Part shown: one piece after another, positions 1,912 to 24,529 of the stretch | How the letters are laid out: each line of letters starts with the position of its first letter | Position numbering within the stretch: the stretch's first letter is position 1 | NCBI GenBank assembly: GCA_964388715.1 | Contig: CAYMBN010000002.1 | Coordinates: 31,441-63,440, forward strand | DNA from: an uncultured Methanosarcinales archaeon | Lineage (GTDB): Archaea; Nanobdellota; Nanobdellia; Woesearchaeales; CAYMBN01 | DNA length: 32,000 nucleotides | Direction: 5' to 3' | The notes under the pieces: generated by a model | Seen by the model: only the letters and a program-made list of their open reading frames with translations | Databases searched by the model: none | Told to the model about the DNA's origin: nothing | Made by a program: the position numbers and the translations under genes

Positions 1912-2055
1912 TGGGGACGTTGGGATTCGAACCCAAATCCGCTGGTATCTTCATCAGAGCAAATGTCTGACATACCATTTTATTAATCATCGGCATTTTG
2001 CCTCATTGCTCCAAAACTGGAGCCAGCTATTCTAGCCAGGTTATACTACGTCCCC
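1912..2055 (-). tRNA. tRNA-Trp (anticodon CCA) with a 70-nt intron at 37/38
   Basis: Hand fold of the minus strand. Acceptor GGGGACG/CGUCCCC plus discriminator A. Anticodon stem GCUGG/CCAGC and loop CU-CCA-G[intron]A. T arm UUGGG-UUCGAAU-CCCAA. Exons are 2055..2017 and 1946..1912. CCA is not encoded. The D stem has one mismatch. Confidence 0.85.
1947..2016 (-). ncRNA. tRNA-Trp intron, candidate box C/D-like methylation guide
   Basis: Box-like motifs are CUGAUGA (1957..1951), AUGAUUA (1990..1984), AUGA (2006..2003) and CAGA (1969..1966). There are 6-7 nt complementarities to tRNA positions 31-37 and to the intron/3'-exon junction. See the finding for details. Confidence 0.35.
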
Positions 2056-9806: not shown

Positions 9807-9844
9807 AACAAAGACTTTTAAAAATTTAAGAAATTTTTAAACCG

Positions 9845-9869
9845 TTTGGAAATGTCTAGCATTTCCAAA
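9845..9869. promoter_or_regulatory. perfect 10-bp inverted repeat directly upstream of the trm1 TATA box
   Basis: TTTGGAAATG-tctag-CATTTCCAAA, followed 2 nt later by TTTTATAT (9872..9879), which sits 23 nt before the ATG at 9903. Confidence 0.4.
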
Positions 9870-9902
9870 AGTTTTATATTTTATTTCTTTTTCTTATTAT
9901 TT

Positions 9903-10919
9903 ATGATAATACAAGAAGGTAAAGTTAAGATTAATGTTGTAAAATCTAAGAAAATTAGTAAGAAACTTTCTGTATTTTATAATCCTGTGATGGAGTTAAA
10001 TAGAACTGTTTCTGTTTTGGTGTTGAATGCTATTGATAAAAAGGACATACAAATAGCATTGCCTTTAGCAGGAAGTGGTGTTCGTGGATTAAGATTTTTA
10101 AAGGAGTTGAAAAAAGGTATTGTTAAGAGGATTTATTTTAATGATATTAGTGAGGATGCTGTTAAATCAATTAAAGATAATTTGAAGCTGAATAGGATCT
10201 CTTCTAAAAAAGTGGTTATTACACAACAGGACGCAAATTTGTTTTTATTAGAGTCTCAGGGTTTTGATTATATTGATGTTGACCCTTTTGGGAGTCCTAA
10301 TATTTTTCTTGATTCTGCTGTTAAAAGATTGGGTAGAGCTGGAATACTTGCTGTAACTGCAACTGATACAGGATGTTTGGCAGGTAGTTTTCCAAAAGCT
10401 TGTCAAAGAAAGTATTGGGCAATTCCGCAAAGAAATGAAACAATGCATGAGAATGGTTTGAGAATTTTAATAAGAAAAGTACAACTGATTGGAGCTGATC
10501 ATAGTAAAGCTTTAACTCCTATTTTTTCATATTCAAAAGATCATTATCTTCGTGTATTTTTTAAATGTGAGAAAGGGAAAAAAAAGGTTGATGAAATTAT
10601 TAAAAAACATGGTATGTTTAATCAAGCAGGTCCTTTGTGGTTAGGTGAATTATGGGATCAAAAAATTGTTAAAAAAATTGTAGGGCAGACAAGTGATAAA
10701 TTTTTAAGGATTATTGAACAAGAGTCAAAAATACCTGTTGTTGGATTTTATAACCTTCCTAGATTATCTAAACAATATAAGTTTAAGATGCTAAAACAAG
10801 ATGAGTTGACAAGAAAAATTAGGAAGAAAGGTTATGAAGTAGCTGTAACTCATTTTGCTCCTAATAGTATAAGAAGCGATATCACAATTGAAAAACTGAT
10901 TATGATTTTAAGAAGATAA
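9903..10919 (+). CDS. trm1: tRNA (guanine26-N2)-dimethyltransferase Trm1
   Basis: Motifs FYNPVMELNR, LAGSGVRGLRF and DVDPFGSP. I start at the internal Met (MIIQEGKVKI) because the 19-codon upstream extension in the ORF track covers the promoter and palindrome. Confidence 0.85.
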   Translation: MIIQEGKVKINVVKSKKISKKLSVFYNPVMELNRTVSVLVLNAIDKKDIQIALPLAGSGVRGLRFLKELKKGIVKRIYFNDISEDAVKSIKDNLKLNRISSKKVVITQQDANLFLLESQGFDYIDVDPFGSPNIFLDSAVKRLGRAGILAVTATDTGCLAGSFPKACQRKYWAIPQRNETMHENGLRILIRKVQLIGADHSKALTPIFSYSKDHYLRVFFKCEKGKKKVDEIIKKHGMFNQAGPLWLGELWDQKIVKKIVGQTSDKFLRIIEQESKIPVVGFYNLPRLSKQYKFKMLKQDELTRKIRKKGYEVAVTHFAPNSIRSDITIEKLIMILRR

Positions 10920-11618: not shown

Positions 11619-11661
11619 TTATCTTTAAGAATTTAGAGTTTTTTATAAATATTATTGTACT

Positions 11662-11940
11662 CTAACCAATAGCTCTTCTTACGTCAACTACTTCAACAGA
11701 CATTATACCTTCTATTCTTTTTATTTGTTCTTCAAGAATGTCTGTGGAACCTTTTGATTCATCCATAACAAAAAGAATTTTTAGAGATTTAAGACCAAAT
11801 GCAATTGGTTCAATTACGGTTTTTGTTTCTCCTTCACCTGCAAAGGCTTTTATTTTTTCTTTTGCTTGTGTTTCAATTTTTCCTAAATCAATTTCAACTG
11901 ATTCAGGCATTATTTTGAATGTTATAATCACATTTGCCAT
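11662..11940 (-). CDS. ef1b: elongation factor 1-beta (aEF-1beta)
   Basis: 92 aa. MANVIITFKIMPESVEIDL...VEVVDVRRAIG is the typical archaeal EF-1beta length and termini. Confidence 0.85.
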   Translation of the reverse strand: MANVIITFKIMPESVEIDLGKIETQAKEKIKAFAGEGETKTVIEPIAFGLKSLKILFVMDESKGSTDILEEQIKRIEGIMSVEVVDVRRAIG

Positions 11941-11956
11941 AATAAAAACCTCTTAA

Positions 11957-12130
11957 TTAATTAGGACCTATAAATCCGCATTCTGGACATCTATATTTAA
12001 CAACGATCTCTCTACAATGTTTACATCGGATTATTTCTTGTTTTCCACATTTAGGACACATGAATTTGACACTTCCTGTGTCATTTGTTATCCTTTTTTT
12101 GCAGGAAATACATACTAATGGTTTTATCAT
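11957..12130 (-). CDS. small Zn-ribbon protein (the family usually adjacent to aEF-1beta)
   Basis: My own translation, not in the ORF track: MIKPLVCISCKKRITNDTGSVKFMCPKCGKQEIIRCKHCREIVVKYRCPECGFIGPN (57 aa, four CxxC pairs). A TATA box (TTTATATA, 12155..12162) lies 24 nt upstream, and ef1b starts 16 nt downstream. Confidence 0.7.
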   Translation of the reverse strand: MIKPLVCISCKKRITNDTGSVKFMCPKCGKQEIIRCKHCREIVVKYRCPECGFIGPN

Positions 12131-12175
12131 TTTAAATACAAAAAATTAGGGTTGTTTATATAGTTTTCCATAAGA

Positions 12176-12183
12176 TTTATAAA
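12176..12183 (+). promoter_or_regulatory. candidate TATA box (TTTATAAA) for a leadered S13-operon transcript
   Basis: It is the same octamer as at the rnz, endA and leuS promoters. It lies about 118 nt upstream of the S13 ATG, so a roughly 100-nt leader would result. Confidence 0.35.
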
Positions 12184-12300
12184 TGCATGGCTATTTTTAG
12201 TGTGAATAACAAGTCTGGTCAATAATGACCTGGCCAATAGGCCTTAAAACCTTGAGGGGTTTTATGACATTATAGGTTGATTCTATAATGTTATATTTAT

Positions 12301-14648: not shown

Positions 14649-14752
14649 GCGGAGGTGGCAGAGCCTGGTCAAATGCGCAAGGTTGAGGAAACAAAACGTT
14701 GCAAATGCCTTGTCCCTTAGTGGGTGCGCGCGTTCGAATCGCGTCCTCCGCA
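14649..14752 (+). tRNA. tRNA-Leu (anticodon GAG), class II, with an ~18-nt anticodon-loop intron
   Basis: Acceptor GCGGAGG/CCUCCGC plus A. D arm GCAG/AUGC. Anticodon stem CAAGG/CCUUG and loop UU-GAG-G[intron 14689..14706]G. Long variable arm CCCUUAGUGGG. T arm GCGCG-UUCGAAU-CGCGU. The intron has an inner helix AAC/GUU. Confidence 0.85.
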
Positions 14753-19766: not shown

Positions 19767-20530
19767 AAATTCTTGTTGTATACATGGAAGAAGCGAAAAA
19801 GAGTGTGAAGGTAATTAAGAATTCTTTGAAAAAATATGAAGTTGATTATAAAATTATTGGAAGGGATAAGTTGAATAAAAGTTTGGTTAAAGGAAAGGAT
19901 TTGGTTATTACATTAGGTGGAGATGGTACTTTTTTGAGAACAGCTCAGTATGTTGATAGAACACTAATGTTTGGTGTTAATTTTAATCCTAAATTAAAAG
20001 AAGGTTTTCTTTTGTCAGCTGATTTGAAGAATTTTGATAGGGCATTTGATAGGATTGTAAAAGGAAAGTATAAAATAAAGAAATTAAATAGGTTGCAAGC
20101 AAAGATTAATAATAAGACATTAAAAGAATTAGCATTGAATGAAATTTTTATTGGTTCTAGGAAAACTTATTGTGTTAGTAGGTATATTATTGAGATCAAG
20201 GGGAAGAAAGAGTTTCAAAAGTCTTCTGGGGTTATTGTTGGTACTGCAACTGGAAGTCATGCGTGGTTGAAATCAGCAGGAGGTAAAATTTTACCTATTA
20301 GTTCTGATAAGATGGAATTTTTTGTAAGAGAACCTTATGTTGGAAGAGTGACTAAGGAGAAATTGAAAAAAGGTGTTTTAGATAGAAATCAAAAAGTTGT
20401 TGTTTATTCTAAAATGAATGATGGTTTAGTAGTCTTTGATTCTTTAAGCAAAGAATATAAGTTTAATGAAGGAGATAAAGTAGTTGTTAGTATGAGTAAG
20501 AAGGATTTGAATGTTATTTTTACAAATTAA
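19763..20530 (+). CDS. nadK: NAD kinase
   Basis: 255 aa. GGDGTFLR motif and NE..IG. ATGA overlap with leuS. Confidence 0.85.
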   Translation: MKILVVYMEEAKKSVKVIKNSLKKYEVDYKIIGRDKLNKSLVKGKDLVITLGGDGTFLRTAQYVDRTLMFGVNFNPKLKEGFLLSADLKNFDRAFDRIVKGKYKIKKLNRLQAKINNKTLKELALNEIFIGSRKTYCVSRYIIEIKGKKEFQKSSGVIVGTATGSHAWLKSAGGKILPISSDKMEFFVREPYVGRVTKEKLKKGVLDRNQKVVVYSKMNDGLVVFDSLSKEYKFNEGDKVVVSMSKKDLNVIFTN

Positions 20531-21410
20531 TCTTCATGAAATCATATGCGCAGGTTATGTTGTCAAAATAAGTTCTTGCGTCTTCTTCTATTTCTTGTGT
20601 TGTTTTGTATCTCTGGGAGAAATGGGTTAATATGAGTCTTTTTACATTTGATCTACTTGCAATAAGTGCAGCTTCTTTTGCAGTCATATGTTTGTATTGT
20701 TCAGCTTTATCTTGGTGTGTTGTTGAAAATGAAGCTTCAGAGATAAGTAGATCAGAGTCTTGGCTGAGTTCATATGCGTTTTTACAAGGAAGTGTATCTG
20801 GGATATAAGTTATTTTTTTGCCTTGTACAACCCTAGTTGCCTTTTCAACGTCGACTTTTTTATTTTTCCATTTTACAGAATGACCATTTTGCAATTTGCC
20901 TAACAAAGGACCATCTGGAATTCCTAGTTTTTTAATATAAGAAACATTGATTCTTCTTGTATCTTTTTCAATAAAACTAAAACCTACTGTAGGTAAACCA
21001 TGCTCAAGTTCCATTGCTTCCATGTAAAAGTCTTTAGTGTCAAGGAATTTCTTTTTTGTAATTTCATGAACCTCAAACTCAATACTACCTTTTGAAAAAA
21101 AGGCTTTCATCATGTTGTCCATATACTTCTTAGTGCCTTTCGGACCATAAATATGTAATTTCTTACTATATTCATTAGCACCCATTGTTTGGATTAAGCC
21201 AGGGATACCTAGGACATGATCACCATGCCAGTGTGAGATAAGTAATTTTGTAATTTTACATGGTTTGATTCCAGCTATTTTAAGTTGTCTTTGAGTACCT
21301 TCACCACAATCCATTAGGATATTTTCTCCTTTATAGGTCAATAAAATAGCAGAATGTGCCCTTTCTTTTGTGGGTTGCATACATGTTGTACCTAAAAATA
21401 TAATTTGCAT
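20520..21410 (-). CDS. rnz: ribonuclease Z (tRNA 3' endonuclease)
   Basis: 296 aa. Metallo-beta-lactamase HWHGDH motif, FLGT N-terminus and C-terminal THFSQRY. Confidence 0.9.
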   Translation of the reverse strand: MQIIFLGTTCMQPTKERAHSAILLTYKGENILMDCGEGTQRQLKIAGIKPCKITKLLISHWHGDHVLGIPGLIQTMGANEYSKKLHIYGPKGTKKYMDNMMKAFFSKGSIEFEVHEITKKKFLDTKDFYMEAMELEHGLPTVGFSFIEKDTRRINVSYIKKLGIPDGPLLGKLQNGHSVKWKNKKVDVEKATRVVQGKKITYIPDTLPCKNAYELSQDSDLLISEASFSTTHQDKAEQYKHMTAKEAALIASRSNVKRLILTHFSQRYKTTQEIEEDARTYFDNITCAYDFMKINL

Positions 21411-21433
21411 TTTACATAGAAAATAGTGGGTTG

Positions 21434-21441
21434 ATTTATAA
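21434..21441 (-). promoter_or_regulatory. TATA box (palindromic TTTATAAA) 23 nt upstream of the rnz ATG
   Basis: Same octamer and spacing as at endA. The flank GTAATC on the rnz side resembles the endA flank GCAATG, possibly a BRE. Confidence 0.55.
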
Positions 21442-21459
21442 AGATTACCCTAAATTGTA

Positions 21460-21583
21460 AGTGCATAGTGCCGTGCCTGTAAAAAATACAAAGACCTATT
21501 ATAAAACATTATGGTTTTTGACACTATTGTCTTACGAACCAAATAATTATTTTTTACAGAAAAATGGCACAGGCACTATGCAC
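21460..21583. repeat. structured element copy A (124 nt, long imperfect hairpin with 12-bp perfect terminal inverted repeat)
   Basis: GTGCATAGTGCC...GGCACTATGCAC termini. Inner stems GTGCC/GGCAC and TGTAAAAAA/TTTTTTACA. The core TATGGTTTTTGACACTATTGTCTTAC (21510..21535) is shared with copy B. Confidence 0.8.
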
Positions 21584-21588
21584 ATAAC

Positions 21589-22671
21589 TTAAATCATCAT
21601 GATATTTAAATTCTTGAATTCTTTATCTAACATTTCTTTTGTTTTCTTTGTTATAGAACCAGGTGTTACAAATAAAGCAGGCAGTTTTTTAAGATTTGCT
21701 TTAACAATTGCAGTTGATAAATCTCCTTCATTACAACGTTTCTTATTTTTTGCCTTACAATAATAATCTAATGTTCCAATTGGTGTTGGTACTGAAATCA
21801 TTAAATCTATTTCAGAGTTACGTTTTACAATTTCATAATCATTTATTTCAATATCTTTTTGTTTGAATGTTTCGTGAATTTTCTTAAAAAAGGAATCTTG
21901 CTCTACTTCAATTCTTTTTTCTATTGTTAACAGTTGTTCCTGTTCACTTACTTTGACTACCTCTTTTTTTGGTTTTCTTGTTTTTTGCACTTTTTCAAGT
22001 TTTTGTTTTTCTTGATCAATCTTTTTCTTAATATCTTCTAGTTCTTTCTTTTTACTCTCAAGCTCATCTTGCTTTTTCTTGTCTAATTCTAATTTTTCTT
22101 TTTTCTTTTTTTCTAATTCAAGTTTTTTCTGCTTTTCTCTTGGTTTTATTTCTTGTTCTTTCTTTAAATCTTTTTTAGTTTCTTCTTTAACTTCTTCAAC
22201 TTTTTTGATCTCTGGTTCAGGTTTTTTGATTTCTTTTGGTTTTAATATTTCCTTGATTAATTCTGAGGATTCTTCTTTGTCACAAAGATACCATTTCCAA
22301 AAAACTTCTGATTTATCTTTAATCTTAACATTGAGTTGTATAGCAAAATCATTTATATTTCCTAAAGAAACTCTCATTAAAGGTGATAGTTGGGAATTTC
22401 TTAGTATCTTTTTTTCTTTTAGTAAATCATAAGCTTTTTTGTCTTGGTTATTAAAATGTTCATATAACATTTTTAATTTTTCTTCTTGTCCCTCTACATA
22501 ATATAATGGAGAACTGCCAATGTTAGCCTTTGAGATTAATAATTTCTTTTTTCCAACTAATTCAGAAAGATAAGCTCCTGCAAAGGTAAGATCAAGCTTT
22601 AATTCTCTTTTTATTTGTGTAGGTAGTAAAGGGCCTTTCTCTTTAACTAAATTATAGATTTTATCTAGCAT
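21589..22671 (-). CDS. hypothetical protein: N-terminal winged-helix-like region, KE-rich coiled coil, C-terminal restriction-endonuclease-like (Mrr-type) region
   Basis: 360 aa. The C-terminal pattern EIDLMISVP...YYCKAKNKK...ALFVTPGSITKK resembles the PD-(D/E)xK Mrr catalytic core. Domain calls are by eye only. Confidence 0.4.
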   Translation of the reverse strand: MLDKIYNLVKEKGPLLPTQIKRELKLDLTFAGAYLSELVGKKKLLISKANIGSSPLYYVEGQEEKLKMLYEHFNNQDKKAYDLLKEKKILRNSQLSPLMRVSLGNINDFAIQLNVKIKDKSEVFWKWYLCDKEESSELIKEILKPKEIKKPEPEIKKVEEVKEETKKDLKKEQEIKPREKQKKLELEKKKKEKLELDKKKQDELESKKKELEDIKKKIDQEKQKLEKVQKTRKPKKEVVKVSEQEQLLTIEKRIEVEQDSFFKKIHETFKQKDIEINDYEIVKRNSEIDLMISVPTPIGTLDYYCKAKNKKRCNEGDLSTAIVKANLKKLPALFVTPGSITKKTKEMLDKEFKNLNIMMI

Positions 22672-22704
22672 ATTAAAATTAAAAGAGTAATGAGTATTTA
22701 TATT

Positions 22705-23238
22705 TTATGGCCTGACCCATCTTACTTCATAGTAAGTAACGTCAGATTCTTCATCAACAACGCCTATAAGAAGCCTTTTTTTGGTAGAGTGTGCTACTCT
22801 GTTCTTTGCGCTAAATTCATACCATGTAAGTGTAGAGCCTTCATGTACTGGGTAAACAATCCATTTTGCATGGTCTTCCCCTGGTTTAATGCCTCTATCA
22901 TAGATTCTGAAATCAGCTCCAAATTTAAGTGCTGTTTTGATTATATAACCGCGATTTCTTATATCTTTATAAACACAGTATCTGATCCAAAAATTAGGTT
23001 CTTTTTTATGTGCTTTTTTGATAAATTTATCAGTTTGAATAGGTTTTTTTCTTCCATCTAAGACAATAAGCTTACTTTTTTCAATTAAATAAAGTGCTTC
23101 AACTAGTGAAAGTTGTAATTTTTTGTCTATTATTTCACCAAATCTACTTTGGTTGTAAAGTTCATTTGCTTCGTCACTTTGTTCACAAATAATCCTTTCA
23201 CCTGTAAGTATTCCGTTGATTGCTTTTGTTTTTGGCAT
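22705..23238 (-). CDS. endA: tRNA-splicing endonuclease (single-unit, about 177 aa, homotetramer-type size)
   Basis: RGYIIKTALKFGADFRIYDRG...EDHAKWIVYPV contains the conserved catalytic Tyr/His region of EndA. The C-terminal K and loop regions are present. Confidence 0.9.
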   Translation of the reverse strand: MPKTKAINGILTGERIICEQSDEANELYNQSRFGEIIDKKLQLSLVEALYLIEKSKLIVLDGRKKPIQTDKFIKKAHKKEPNFWIRYCVYKDIRNRGYIIKTALKFGADFRIYDRGIKPGEDHAKWIVYPVHEGSTLTWYEFSAKNRVAHSTKKRLLIGVVDEESDVTYYEVRWVRP

Positions 23239-23261
23239 ATTTTACAAAAAGTGCTTTTTCC

Positions 23262-23269
23262 TTTATAAA
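23262..23269 (-). promoter_or_regulatory. TATA box (palindromic TTTATAAA) 23 nt upstream of the endA ATG
   Basis: Identical octamer and spacing to the rnz promoter. Confidence 0.55.
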
Positions 23270-23287
23270 CATTGCTTTTTTTAGTAC

Positions 23288-23431
23288 GTGCATAGTACCA
23301 TACCGTCAAAAACACAAAAACCTGTTATTGATATTGGTGAAGACAATATGTCCTAGTATGGGTTTTTGACATTATTGTTTTACAATACGAATAGTTGTTT
23401 TTGACCAAATGGTGGCAAAGGCACTATGCAC
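23288..23431. repeat. structured element copy B (144 nt)
   Basis: GTGCATAGTACC...GGCACTATGCAC termini with one A/C mismatch. Inner stem GTCAAAAACA/TGTTTTTGAC. Core TATGGGTTTTTGACATTATTGTTTTAC (23357..23383). It has an insertion of about 25 nt relative to copy A and the same orientation as A. Confidence 0.8.
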
Positions 23432-23494
23432 ATGCTTTTTTCACTACTCTTAAACATAAACTATATAAACAACATAACCTCTTTTTTACTTAAA

Positions 23495-24529
23495 ATGGGA
23501 GTTAAAATATTTGAACTTTTGACTAAAAAAGAGATTGGTTTGAAGGATTTATCTAATAAAGTGATTATGGTTGATGCTTCACTTGTGTTATATCAATTCT
23601 TGTCAAGCATAAGACAAAGGGATGGTACTCCTTTGAAAGATTCTCAAGGTAATGTAACTAGTCATCTGATAGGGTTATTTTCAAGGACAACGCGGTTGAT
23701 GCAGAATCATATTAAAATTGCATATGTTTTTGATGGAAAAGCACCTGACTTGAAAAAAAAGGAACGTGAAAGAAGAGCTGGGTTAAAGCAAGAAGCAAAA
23801 GTGAAATATGAAGCAGCATTAAAAGCAAAGGATGTTGCTGGAATGAAAAAATATGCTTCAAGAACTAGTAAACTTACACCTAGAATGGTTTCTGAAGCAA
23901 AGGAACTTATTAGTGCGTTAGGTTTACCAATAATACAAGCACCAAGTGAAGGAGAAGCACAAGCAGCTTATATTGTTAAGAAAGGAGATGCTTTTGCATT
24001 AGCAACACAAGATGCAGATGGTTTTATGTTTGGTACTCCAAGATTAGTGAAAAATCTTACTGTTTCTGAGAAAAGGAAAATGCCTGGTAGATCAGCTTAC
24101 TATACTGTTAAGCCTGAAATATTTGAACTTTCAAATGCATTAAATAATTTAGGAATTGATCAATCACAATTGATTGCTTTAGGTATGTTGATTGGTACTG
24201 ATTACAATATTGGTGGAATAAAAGGTATTGGACCTAAGAATGGATTAAAGCTTGTTAAAAAATTTGGTAAGGATTTTGGTGGTTTGTTTAAAGAAGTAAA
24301 ATGGGATGATTATTTTGATTTTGAATGGAGGCAGGTTTATGACACAATTAAAGACATTAAAACAACTGATGACTATAATTTAAAATGGAACAGAGTTGAT
24401 GTTGATAAGATTAAAGAAATTTTGTCTGAAAAACATGATTTTTCAAGTGAACGTGTTGATAATACATTAAAAAAATTAATTAAACAAAAAGAAGATAAAA
24501 AACAAAAAGGTTTAGGTGAGTGGTTTTAA
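23495..24529 (+). CDS. fen: flap endonuclease 1
   Basis: MGVKIFELL N-terminus, VFDGKAPDLK, and the H3TH region GTDYNIGGIKGIGPK. The TATA box TATATAAA (23463..23470) lies 24 nt upstream. The ORF-track start at 23426 lies inside element B and is rejected. Confidence 0.95.
   Translation: MGVKIFELLTKKEIGLKDLSNKVIMVDASLVLYQFLSSIRQRDGTPLKDSQGNVTSHLIGLFSRTTRLMQNHIKIAYVFDGKAPDLKKKERERRAGLKQEAKVKYEAALKAKDVAGMKKYASRTSKLTPRMVSEAKELISALGLPIIQAPSEGEAQAAYIVKKGDAFALATQDADGFMFGTPRLVKNLTVSEKRKMPGRSAYYTVKPEIFELSNALNNLGIDQSQLIALGMLIGTDYNIGGIKGIGPKNGLKLVKKFGKDFGGLFKEVKWDDYFDFEWRQVYDTIKDIKTTDDYNLKWNRVDVDKIKEILSEKHDFSSERVDNTLKKLIKQKEDKKQKGLGEWF

Follow-up and report, generated by a model that had tools for sequence, protein, structure and literature searches.

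Paired hairpins at the borders of an inverted endA block in an archaeal genome are probably relics of a MITE family

What are the two long hairpins which bracket the tRNA-splicing endonuclease gene endA in an uncultured archaeon, deposited as a member of Methanosarcinales and placed by GTDB among the Woesearchaeales? The question is raised by a stretch of 32,000 nucleotides (contig CAYMBN010000002.1, positions 31,441 to 63,440; hereafter, the window), in which a preliminary description had recognized two related elements, A and B, and interpreted them as a structured-RNA gene. A different answer is proposed here. With a probability of about 0.88, A and B are old copies of a miniature inverted-repeat transposable element (MITE), a non-coding and non-autonomous DNA transposon, and not an RNA gene. 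MITEs carry terminal inverted repeats, are flanked by duplications of 2-10 bp which fade with age, reside in AT-rich intergenic sites and form stable stem-loops (PMC10969869, PMC11602168). The hallmarks of these elements are present in the family described in this work: inverted repeats of 16 bp, a duplication of fixed length (8 bp), small size, lack of coding capacity, and dispersed copies sharing only their ends. A and B are probably no longer mobile. They are regarded as relics because their 4-nt tips no longer fully pair and the flanking duplications have decayed, whereas tips and duplications are perfect in L004 and L005, two members of the family retrieved from groundwater contigs.

Both copies had been correctly located, and lie in the same orientation. 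The 12-bp terminal inverted repeat attributed to them is indeed shared by A and B, but the full repeat measures 16 bp, and the elements are 4 nt longer at each end. The start assigned to A, 21460, included one surplus base. So delimited, A spans 131 bp (21457 to 21587) and B 152 bp (23284 to 23435), both on the plus strand; aligned in the same orientation, they are 82% identical, and B carries two 11-nt insertions relative to A. The family consensus of the terminal repeat is GTATGTGCATAGTGCC, found at the right end of L004 and L005 in the form GGCACTATGCACATAC. Left and right repeats of A, GTAAGTGCATAGTGCC (21457 to 21472) and GGCACTATGCACATAA (21572 to 21587), differ from the consensus at one position each; the repeats of B, GTACGTGCATAGTACC (23284 to 23299) and GGCACTATGCACATGC (23420 to 23435), differ at two and one positions, respectively, and those of L004 and L005 are perfect. 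The tips read GTAAGTG in A, GTACGTG in B, and GTATGTG in L004, L005 and L053, a further member of the family. Searched with up to two mismatches, the 12-mer GTGCATAGTGCC occurs four times in the window, at 21461, 21572 (minus strand), 23288 (with one mismatch, GTGCATAGTACC) and 23420 (minus strand). Chance would predict about 0.5 occurrences, and four were reached in none of 100 shuffles.

Within the terminal repeats, a second stem of 10 bp is formed in A by GTAAAAAATA (21479 to 21488) and TATTTTTTAC (21548 to 21557), with 10 standard pairs out of 10, and in B by GTCAAAAACA (23305 to 23314) and TGTTTTTGAC (23396 to 23405). An asymmetric core, GGTTTTTGACACTATTGTCTTAC in A (21513 to 21535) and GGTTTTTGACATTATTGTTTTAC in B (23361 to 23383), is common to these two copies only, and sets the orientation of the element. 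The conserved core had been noticed before, and the observation holds, since GGTTTTTGACAYTATTGTYTTAC is found in the window only at 21513 and 23361, with no occurrence expected. The only open reading frame (ORF) within A is a GTG frame of 43 codons. No variation was detected inside A and B among three near-identical scaffolds deposited in ENA, which are uninformative for that reason.

An 8-bp direct repeat, absent from the preliminary description, flanks all six complete elements compared, namely A, B, L004, L005, L053 and L063. A is inserted between CCTAAATT (21449 to 21456) and CTTAAATC (21588 to 21595), which match at 6 of 8 positions; the right copy includes the stop codon (21589 to 21591, minus strand) of gene X, the neighbour of endA. 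The repeats at the ends of B, TTTTTTTA (23276 to 23283) and TTTTTTCA (23436 to 23443), match at 7 positions. L004 is flanked on both sides by GAGGCTGG, and L005 by AGCCTCTA (8/8 in either case). The match is 6/8 in L053, and 7/8 in L063, where the flanks were read by eye assuming the loss of one tip base. Taking as null distribution 8-mers at matching spacing in this window, the probability of a match of at least 6/8 is 0.012, and that of at least 7/8 is 0.0011-0.0019. The joint chance of the duplications of A and B is about 2e-5, and the perfect duplications of L004 and L005 are each rarer still.

Members of the family elsewhere have in common little more than their termini. Metagenomes scanned for the two 12-mers separated by a gap of 95-125 nt returned two Hainich groundwater contigs, which host L004 and L005. 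In both, the termini of the window copies surround a wholly different, GC-rich interior. L004 adjoins genes which look VapBC-like by eye and a Fic gene, L005 an intron-containing tRNA and genes for membrane-like proteins. An exact 16-mer scan, limited to one genome per species, yielded at least 42 matches, mostly bacterial singletons lacking a partner end, and three archaeal members of the family. L053 is a complete 114-bp element lodged between a DHH/RecJ-like gene and the gene of ribosomal protein S15, and L063 an element of about 175 bp located beside a translin gene; their interiors are unrelated to those of the other members. Element sizes thus range from about 114 to about 175 bp. The third member, L033 (6281-6316, in a genome of Woesearchaeota), is a solo left end, made of the 16-bp repeat followed by some 20 nt of homology with L053. 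Within the 1.7 kb examined, ordinary small ORFs follow and a right end is missing; L033 represents either a relic cut short or one border of a longer element. The genes next to the elements differ at every insertion site, and are of ordinary housekeeping type. Genome contigs gave no match to the pattern of two 12-mers at a 95-125-nt gap. In viral contigs the same pattern was missing at gaps of 64-94, 95-125 and 126-156 nt, and the exact 16-mer was found in at least 18 singletons without partner end, a result consistent with chance. Scattered intergenic copies flanked by target-site duplications, as in an ordinary MITE, are among the findings which the preliminary description had itself named as able to refute an RNA gene, and are what has been found.

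How are the strong hairpins to be explained? Relative to shuffled sequences, the folds of A (z = -7.3) and B (z = -3.1) are unusually stable. Plus and minus strands of A fold at -43.2 and -44.3 kcal/mol, those of B at -41.6 and -42.9, and the other pairs of plus/minus values are -60.2/-56.1, -53.1/-52.6 and -38.2/-37.2 kcal/mol. The difference between strands amounts to about 1-4 kcal/mol, and has no consistent direction. Equal folding of both strands is expected of a DNA palindrome, not of an RNA selected on one strand, and we infer that palindromic DNA, not an RNA gene, underlies the long hairpin. The structure had been described correctly, as a long hairpin having inner stems which are complementary in either copy, yet different between copies as a consequence of double substitutions. 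The compensatory changes are real. In the second stem two pairs are changed on both sides between A and B (A-T versus C-G, T-A versus C-G). When L004 and L005 are included, double changes involve 5 of 10 pairs, the sole non-pair being a G.A at pair 1 in L004 and L005. The second stem is absent from L053 and L063, in which the terminal repeat alone closes the fold, and the three-stem architecture is not shared.

The step from this structure to an RNA gene is not supported. In the two window copies stems are better preserved than tips and duplications, but transposon arms may co-vary without any RNA. Quasi-palindromes are perfected by template switching from one arm to the other. Birth of the element through fold-back of one end of an insertion sequence (IS) is another possible origin of arm co-variation. 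Some force maintaining the palindrome is plausible: the hairpin may be under selection as DNA or RNA, its arms may be corrected by template switching from arm to arm, or the subfamilies may have been born independently by fold-back. The issue rests on four sequences (A, B, L004 and L005), too few to separate the candidates.

In which genetic context have A and B been inserted? The window has a GC content of about 30% and is archaeal. Besides endA, it hosts genes for FEN1, Trm5, Trm1 and RNA 3'-phosphate cyclase, as well as a ribosomal-protein/RpoD cluster of archaeal type. EndA homologues are labelled as Woesearchaeota or Nanoarchaeota, and the nearest non-self proteins are 72-77% identical. 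The endA gene (22705 to 23238, minus strand; Pfam families tRNA_int_endo and tRNA_int_endo_N) and gene X (21589 to 22671, minus strand) make up the block lying between the two elements, and both reside outside MITE DNA. Gene X, a neighbour of endA conserved in all the relatives, encodes 360 amino acids assigned to no Pfam family. Its orthologues align over the full length (E = 2e-84 and 3e-70), and the insertion of A did not truncate X, since X ends where the orthologue ends. Inspected by eye, the X protein has a winged-helix-like N-terminus, a Lys/Glu-rich linker of variable length in the middle, and about 90 well conserved C-terminal residues. On the opposite side of A, the minus strand carries at 20520-21410 a gene of metallo-beta-lactamase (MBL)/RNase Z-like type, and A is located upstream of the promoter of this gene. 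FEN1 most likely starts from the ATG at 23496 (ATGGGAGTT), not at 23426 as in the mechanical ORF list, and B therefore does not overlap FEN1. B appears to sit between the seemingly divergent promoters of endA and FEN1.

The locus was compared in five independent lineages of Woesearchaeota/Nanoarchaeota (L066-L075, about 110 kb of non-redundant sequence). The gene neighbourhood is otherwise kept, but neither the terminal repeat nor any comparable element was found at the corresponding junctions. In all five relatives (L066, L069, L070, L072 and L074) endA, X and FEN1 are on one strand, and four of the five have the MBL/RNase Z-like gene upstream, in the opposite orientation. In the window, genes and elements are ordered MBL(-), A, X(-), endA(-), B, FEN1(+). 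Here the orientation of the X-endA block is reversed (21411-23495), and A and B are found exactly at the two breakpoints of the inversion. Three independent assemblies agree, which excludes a misassembly. Before insertion, the spacers at the two junctions measured about 39 and about 97 nt. With some 10 sizeable spacers per 32 kb, the probability that a copy has landed by coincidence at each of both new junctions can be put, post hoc, at roughly a few percent.

It is tempting to ascribe the inversion to the elements themselves, which would have served, as whole copies or through their inverted ends, as substrates for homologous or transposase-mediated recombination. The uniform strand of endA, X and FEN1 in the five relatives, the flipped block flanked by A and B at the breakpoints, and the inverted-repeat relation between A's right end and B's left end are all in line with such a scenario. 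Recombination between the copies would have swapped the inner flanks, though, so that the left duplication of A should be the reverse complement of the left duplication of B, and the right one of A that of the right one of B. The matches observed are 3/8 and 3/8, about as expected by chance, against 6/8 and 7/8 for the duplications as they stand, un-swapped. The inner pair of flanks matches at 3/8, and the outer pair, expected to match in a composite transposon, at 1/8. In addition, A and B are repeated directly, with an identity of only 82%. This makes recombination between the copies a very unlikely source of the inversion. The un-swapped duplications indicate that A and B were inserted after the inversion. 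For A the duplication itself points the same way: it overlaps both the X stop codon and the DNA preceding the MBL gene, and hence a junction which exists only in the inverted arrangement. A further way to account for two hairpins in the same orientation at the sides of a gene block is that they work as integron attC-like single-strand recombination sites bracketing a cassette; imperfect hairpins, bulges confined to a single strand, and conserved ends around a variable centre would all fit. The ends, however, read GTATGTG...CACATAC, and are not the RYYYAAC/GTTRRRY core sites of attC, no integrase is encoded in the window, 8-bp duplications are not produced by attC recombination, and the genes bracketed, of conserved housekeeping type, occupy their usual neighbourhood. 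The chance that A and B are sites of this kind is virtually negligible.

Two explanations assign a function to the hairpins. According to one, A and B belong to a family of structured non-coding RNA genes, in which the hairpin is the product, driven by its own promoter and selected for its structure. The strong folding (z down to -7.3), the double changes in 5 of 10 pairs of the second stem with no mismatch except at pair 1 of L004 and L005, the lower decay of stems relative to tips and duplications (p = 0.001), and a palindromic TTTATAAA box found 17-19 nt upstream of the GTGCAT core in both A and B all speak in its favour. But the TATA-like boxes upstream also suit the promoters of the flanking genes, and L005 has no box at that distance. 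Members of the family share the termini alone, synteny is lacking as copies are scattered and the corresponding loci of the five relatives have no element, and neither strand is favoured in folding. A search of Rfam 15, recommended in the preliminary description, gave no match to A and B, neither at gathering score nor with E relaxed to 10, and none to L004 and L005, and ARAGORN found nothing on the elements. Terminal repeats and 8-bp duplications complete the picture, in which an RNA gene has become extremely unlikely. Two more specific functions had been considered and dropped: EndA bulge-helix-bulge substrates, because other members of the family are not near endA, and archaeal replication-origin ORB repeats, because L004 and L005 have GC-rich hairpins in their interiors where AT-rich unwinding elements would be expected. 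According to the other explanation, which is unlikely but less easily dismissed, the elements arrived by transposition and are now under selection, as an example A as a 3'-end or terminator hairpin for X, and B as an insulator between the divergent promoters of endA and FEN1. MITE hairpins working as terminators, mRNA stabilisers and sources of small RNAs have been documented in bacteria (PMC10969869). A starts 5 nt past the stop codon of X, and would be transcribed into the 3' end of its mRNA, and stems are intact where tips and duplications have decayed. This comparison is drawn from two copies only, and counts are small. Arm-to-arm template switching in quasi-palindromes would yield the same pattern without selection. 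B, in turn, seems to be placed between TATA-like boxes of the divergent promoters, and is probably transcribed by neither gene.

Some observations do not sit comfortably with a MITE relic. Stems are kept better than tips and duplications: in the two window copies, 7 of 24 positions are changed in tips and duplications, and only one pair out of 51 in the stems (Fisher p = 0.001; p = 0.04 if the comparison is made with duplications alone), which a plain neutral relic does not predict. Nor does it predict the position of the second stem, set off from the terminal repeat by 5-6 nt on the 5' arm and by 0-14 nt on the 3' arm, an inequality which argues in turn against a symmetric site for protein binding. 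The duplications in the window are imperfect (6/8 and 7/8), and those of B are T-rich. The relatives, being distant (EndA identity of 77% at most) and un-inverted, do not offer a base-exact empty site. The copies documented here in the source genome are two, from the 32,000-nt window. Finally, no autonomous element having the same termini emerged from the exact 16-mer scans, whose listed matches are chance-like singletons, viral and bacterial. It is unlikely, though conceivable, that the hairpins are not inert, being either kept by selection as structured elements at the two inversion junctions, or the product of a family whose insertion or excision is mechanistically tied to that inversion.

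If A and B are MITE relics, their history can be reconstructed from the anatomy of the element. A DDE-type transposase encoded elsewhere would act in trans, binding the 16-bp terminal inverted repeats. The element would then be inserted into a staggered 8-bp cut, the repair of which would leave the 8-bp duplication. At the locus studied here the lineage-specific inversion of the X-endA block came first, and one copy was inserted afterwards at each of the new junctions. No transposase gene was found, either within the window or next to any other copy. GTA-type tips and the 8-bp duplication make an IS66/ISBst12-like enzyme the best guess; as no autonomous partner was found, the family assignment draws on tips and duplication length. 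Base composition differs among hosts, from about 30% GC in the window to roughly 45%, as judged by eye, in the Hainich contigs. The occurrence of the family in archaeal lineages of very different GC content implies that the transposase is shared, or has spread horizontally.

Additional features were encountered in the course of the analyses. The relative L069 carries at 9818-9928, in the spacer between the MBL gene and endA, a different hairpin of about 110 nt, which has ends GTTGGCAAC and GTTGCCAAC, an inner stem formed by GGGTAAAAGTT and AACTTTTAC, and CTCCCCGTAGGGGAG at the centre. The enclosing stretch of 131 nt folds at -40.2 kcal/mol (z = -5.0), and no obvious target duplication was seen; the hairpin may represent another MITE family of the same architecture. 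In the window, two tRNA genes escaped ARAGORN. One (14649-14752, plus strand), GC-rich and 104 nt long, combines a long variable arm with an intron of 21 nt, resides between an RpoD-like gene and the L18e gene (42 bits, E = 5e-8), and was missed also by the whole-window Rfam scan at gathering score. The other (1912-2055, minus strand) is 144 nt long, has a long intron, and scores 40.9 bits in Rfam. A gap of 682 nt (11619-12300) in the list of ORFs of at least 100 amino acids seemingly hosts short unlisted ORFs on the minus strand.

The re-interpretation of A and B has consequences. What looked like a novel structured RNA is better seen as the relic of a transposon, and should not seed an RNA family. 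In turn, a MITE family is delimited by a 16-bp repeat, GTATGTGCATAGTGCC, and an 8-bp duplication. A and B mark a lineage-specific inversion of the otherwise conserved endA-X pair, and provide a small test case of palindrome arms which stay complementary after the transposon has lost mobility. Should insertion or excision prove to be tied to the inversion, the family would drive changes in gene order within a streamlined DPANN genome.

The affinities of the putative transposase may be looked for among IS families. Inverted repeats of IS66 begin with GTAAGCG, and 8-bp direct repeats flank the element (PMC11946415); in ISDge4, of the ISBst12 group, the ends are GTGACT/GTAACT and the repeat is likewise of 8 bp (PMC12898284). 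The family described here similarly combines an 8-bp repeat with a GTA start, and copy A begins with GTAAGTG, though this is resemblance only. The tip of the family consensus is GTATGTG, not GTAAGCG, and no IS66-type transposase was found beside any copy. Duplications of 8 bp are also generated by ISL3, IS6, IS256, IS1595, ISH6 and ISA1214 (ISfinder tables), which are further candidate sources. Looked at as hairpins, A and B are reminiscent of attC sites, which are also imperfect, in the same orientation, bulged on one side and placed at the flanks of genes; core sites, integrase and insertion signature tell them apart. A text search of the literature for the terminal-repeat string returned unrelated primers only, the sequences of the MITE census being outside that text.

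The closest counterparts are MITEs of bacteria and archaea. ERIC/IRU, Correia/NEMIS, RUP and QMITE elements resemble A and B in being non-coding, about 110-180 bp long, provided with terminal inverted repeats, flanked by short duplications fading with age, resident in AT-rich intergenic sites and able to fold back very stably (PMC10969869, PMC11602168). In contrast to them, the present family is unrelated in sequence, and resides in archaea (Woesearchaeota/Nanoarchaeota, and other archaeal genomes from metagenomes). The duplication is typically a TA dinucleotide in ERIC and Correia elements, and 8 bp in the family described here. The MITEs known in Sulfolobus, Halobacterium, Haloquadratum and Desulfurococcus are likewise intergenic, non-autonomous derivatives of ISs (PMC10969869). 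DPANN genomes, one woesearchaeal genome included, are among the archaeal genomes most densely populated by MITEs (PMC11602168). The family of A and B probably belongs to this already known class of elements; the observation of the hairpins was a good one, the RNA label was wrong.

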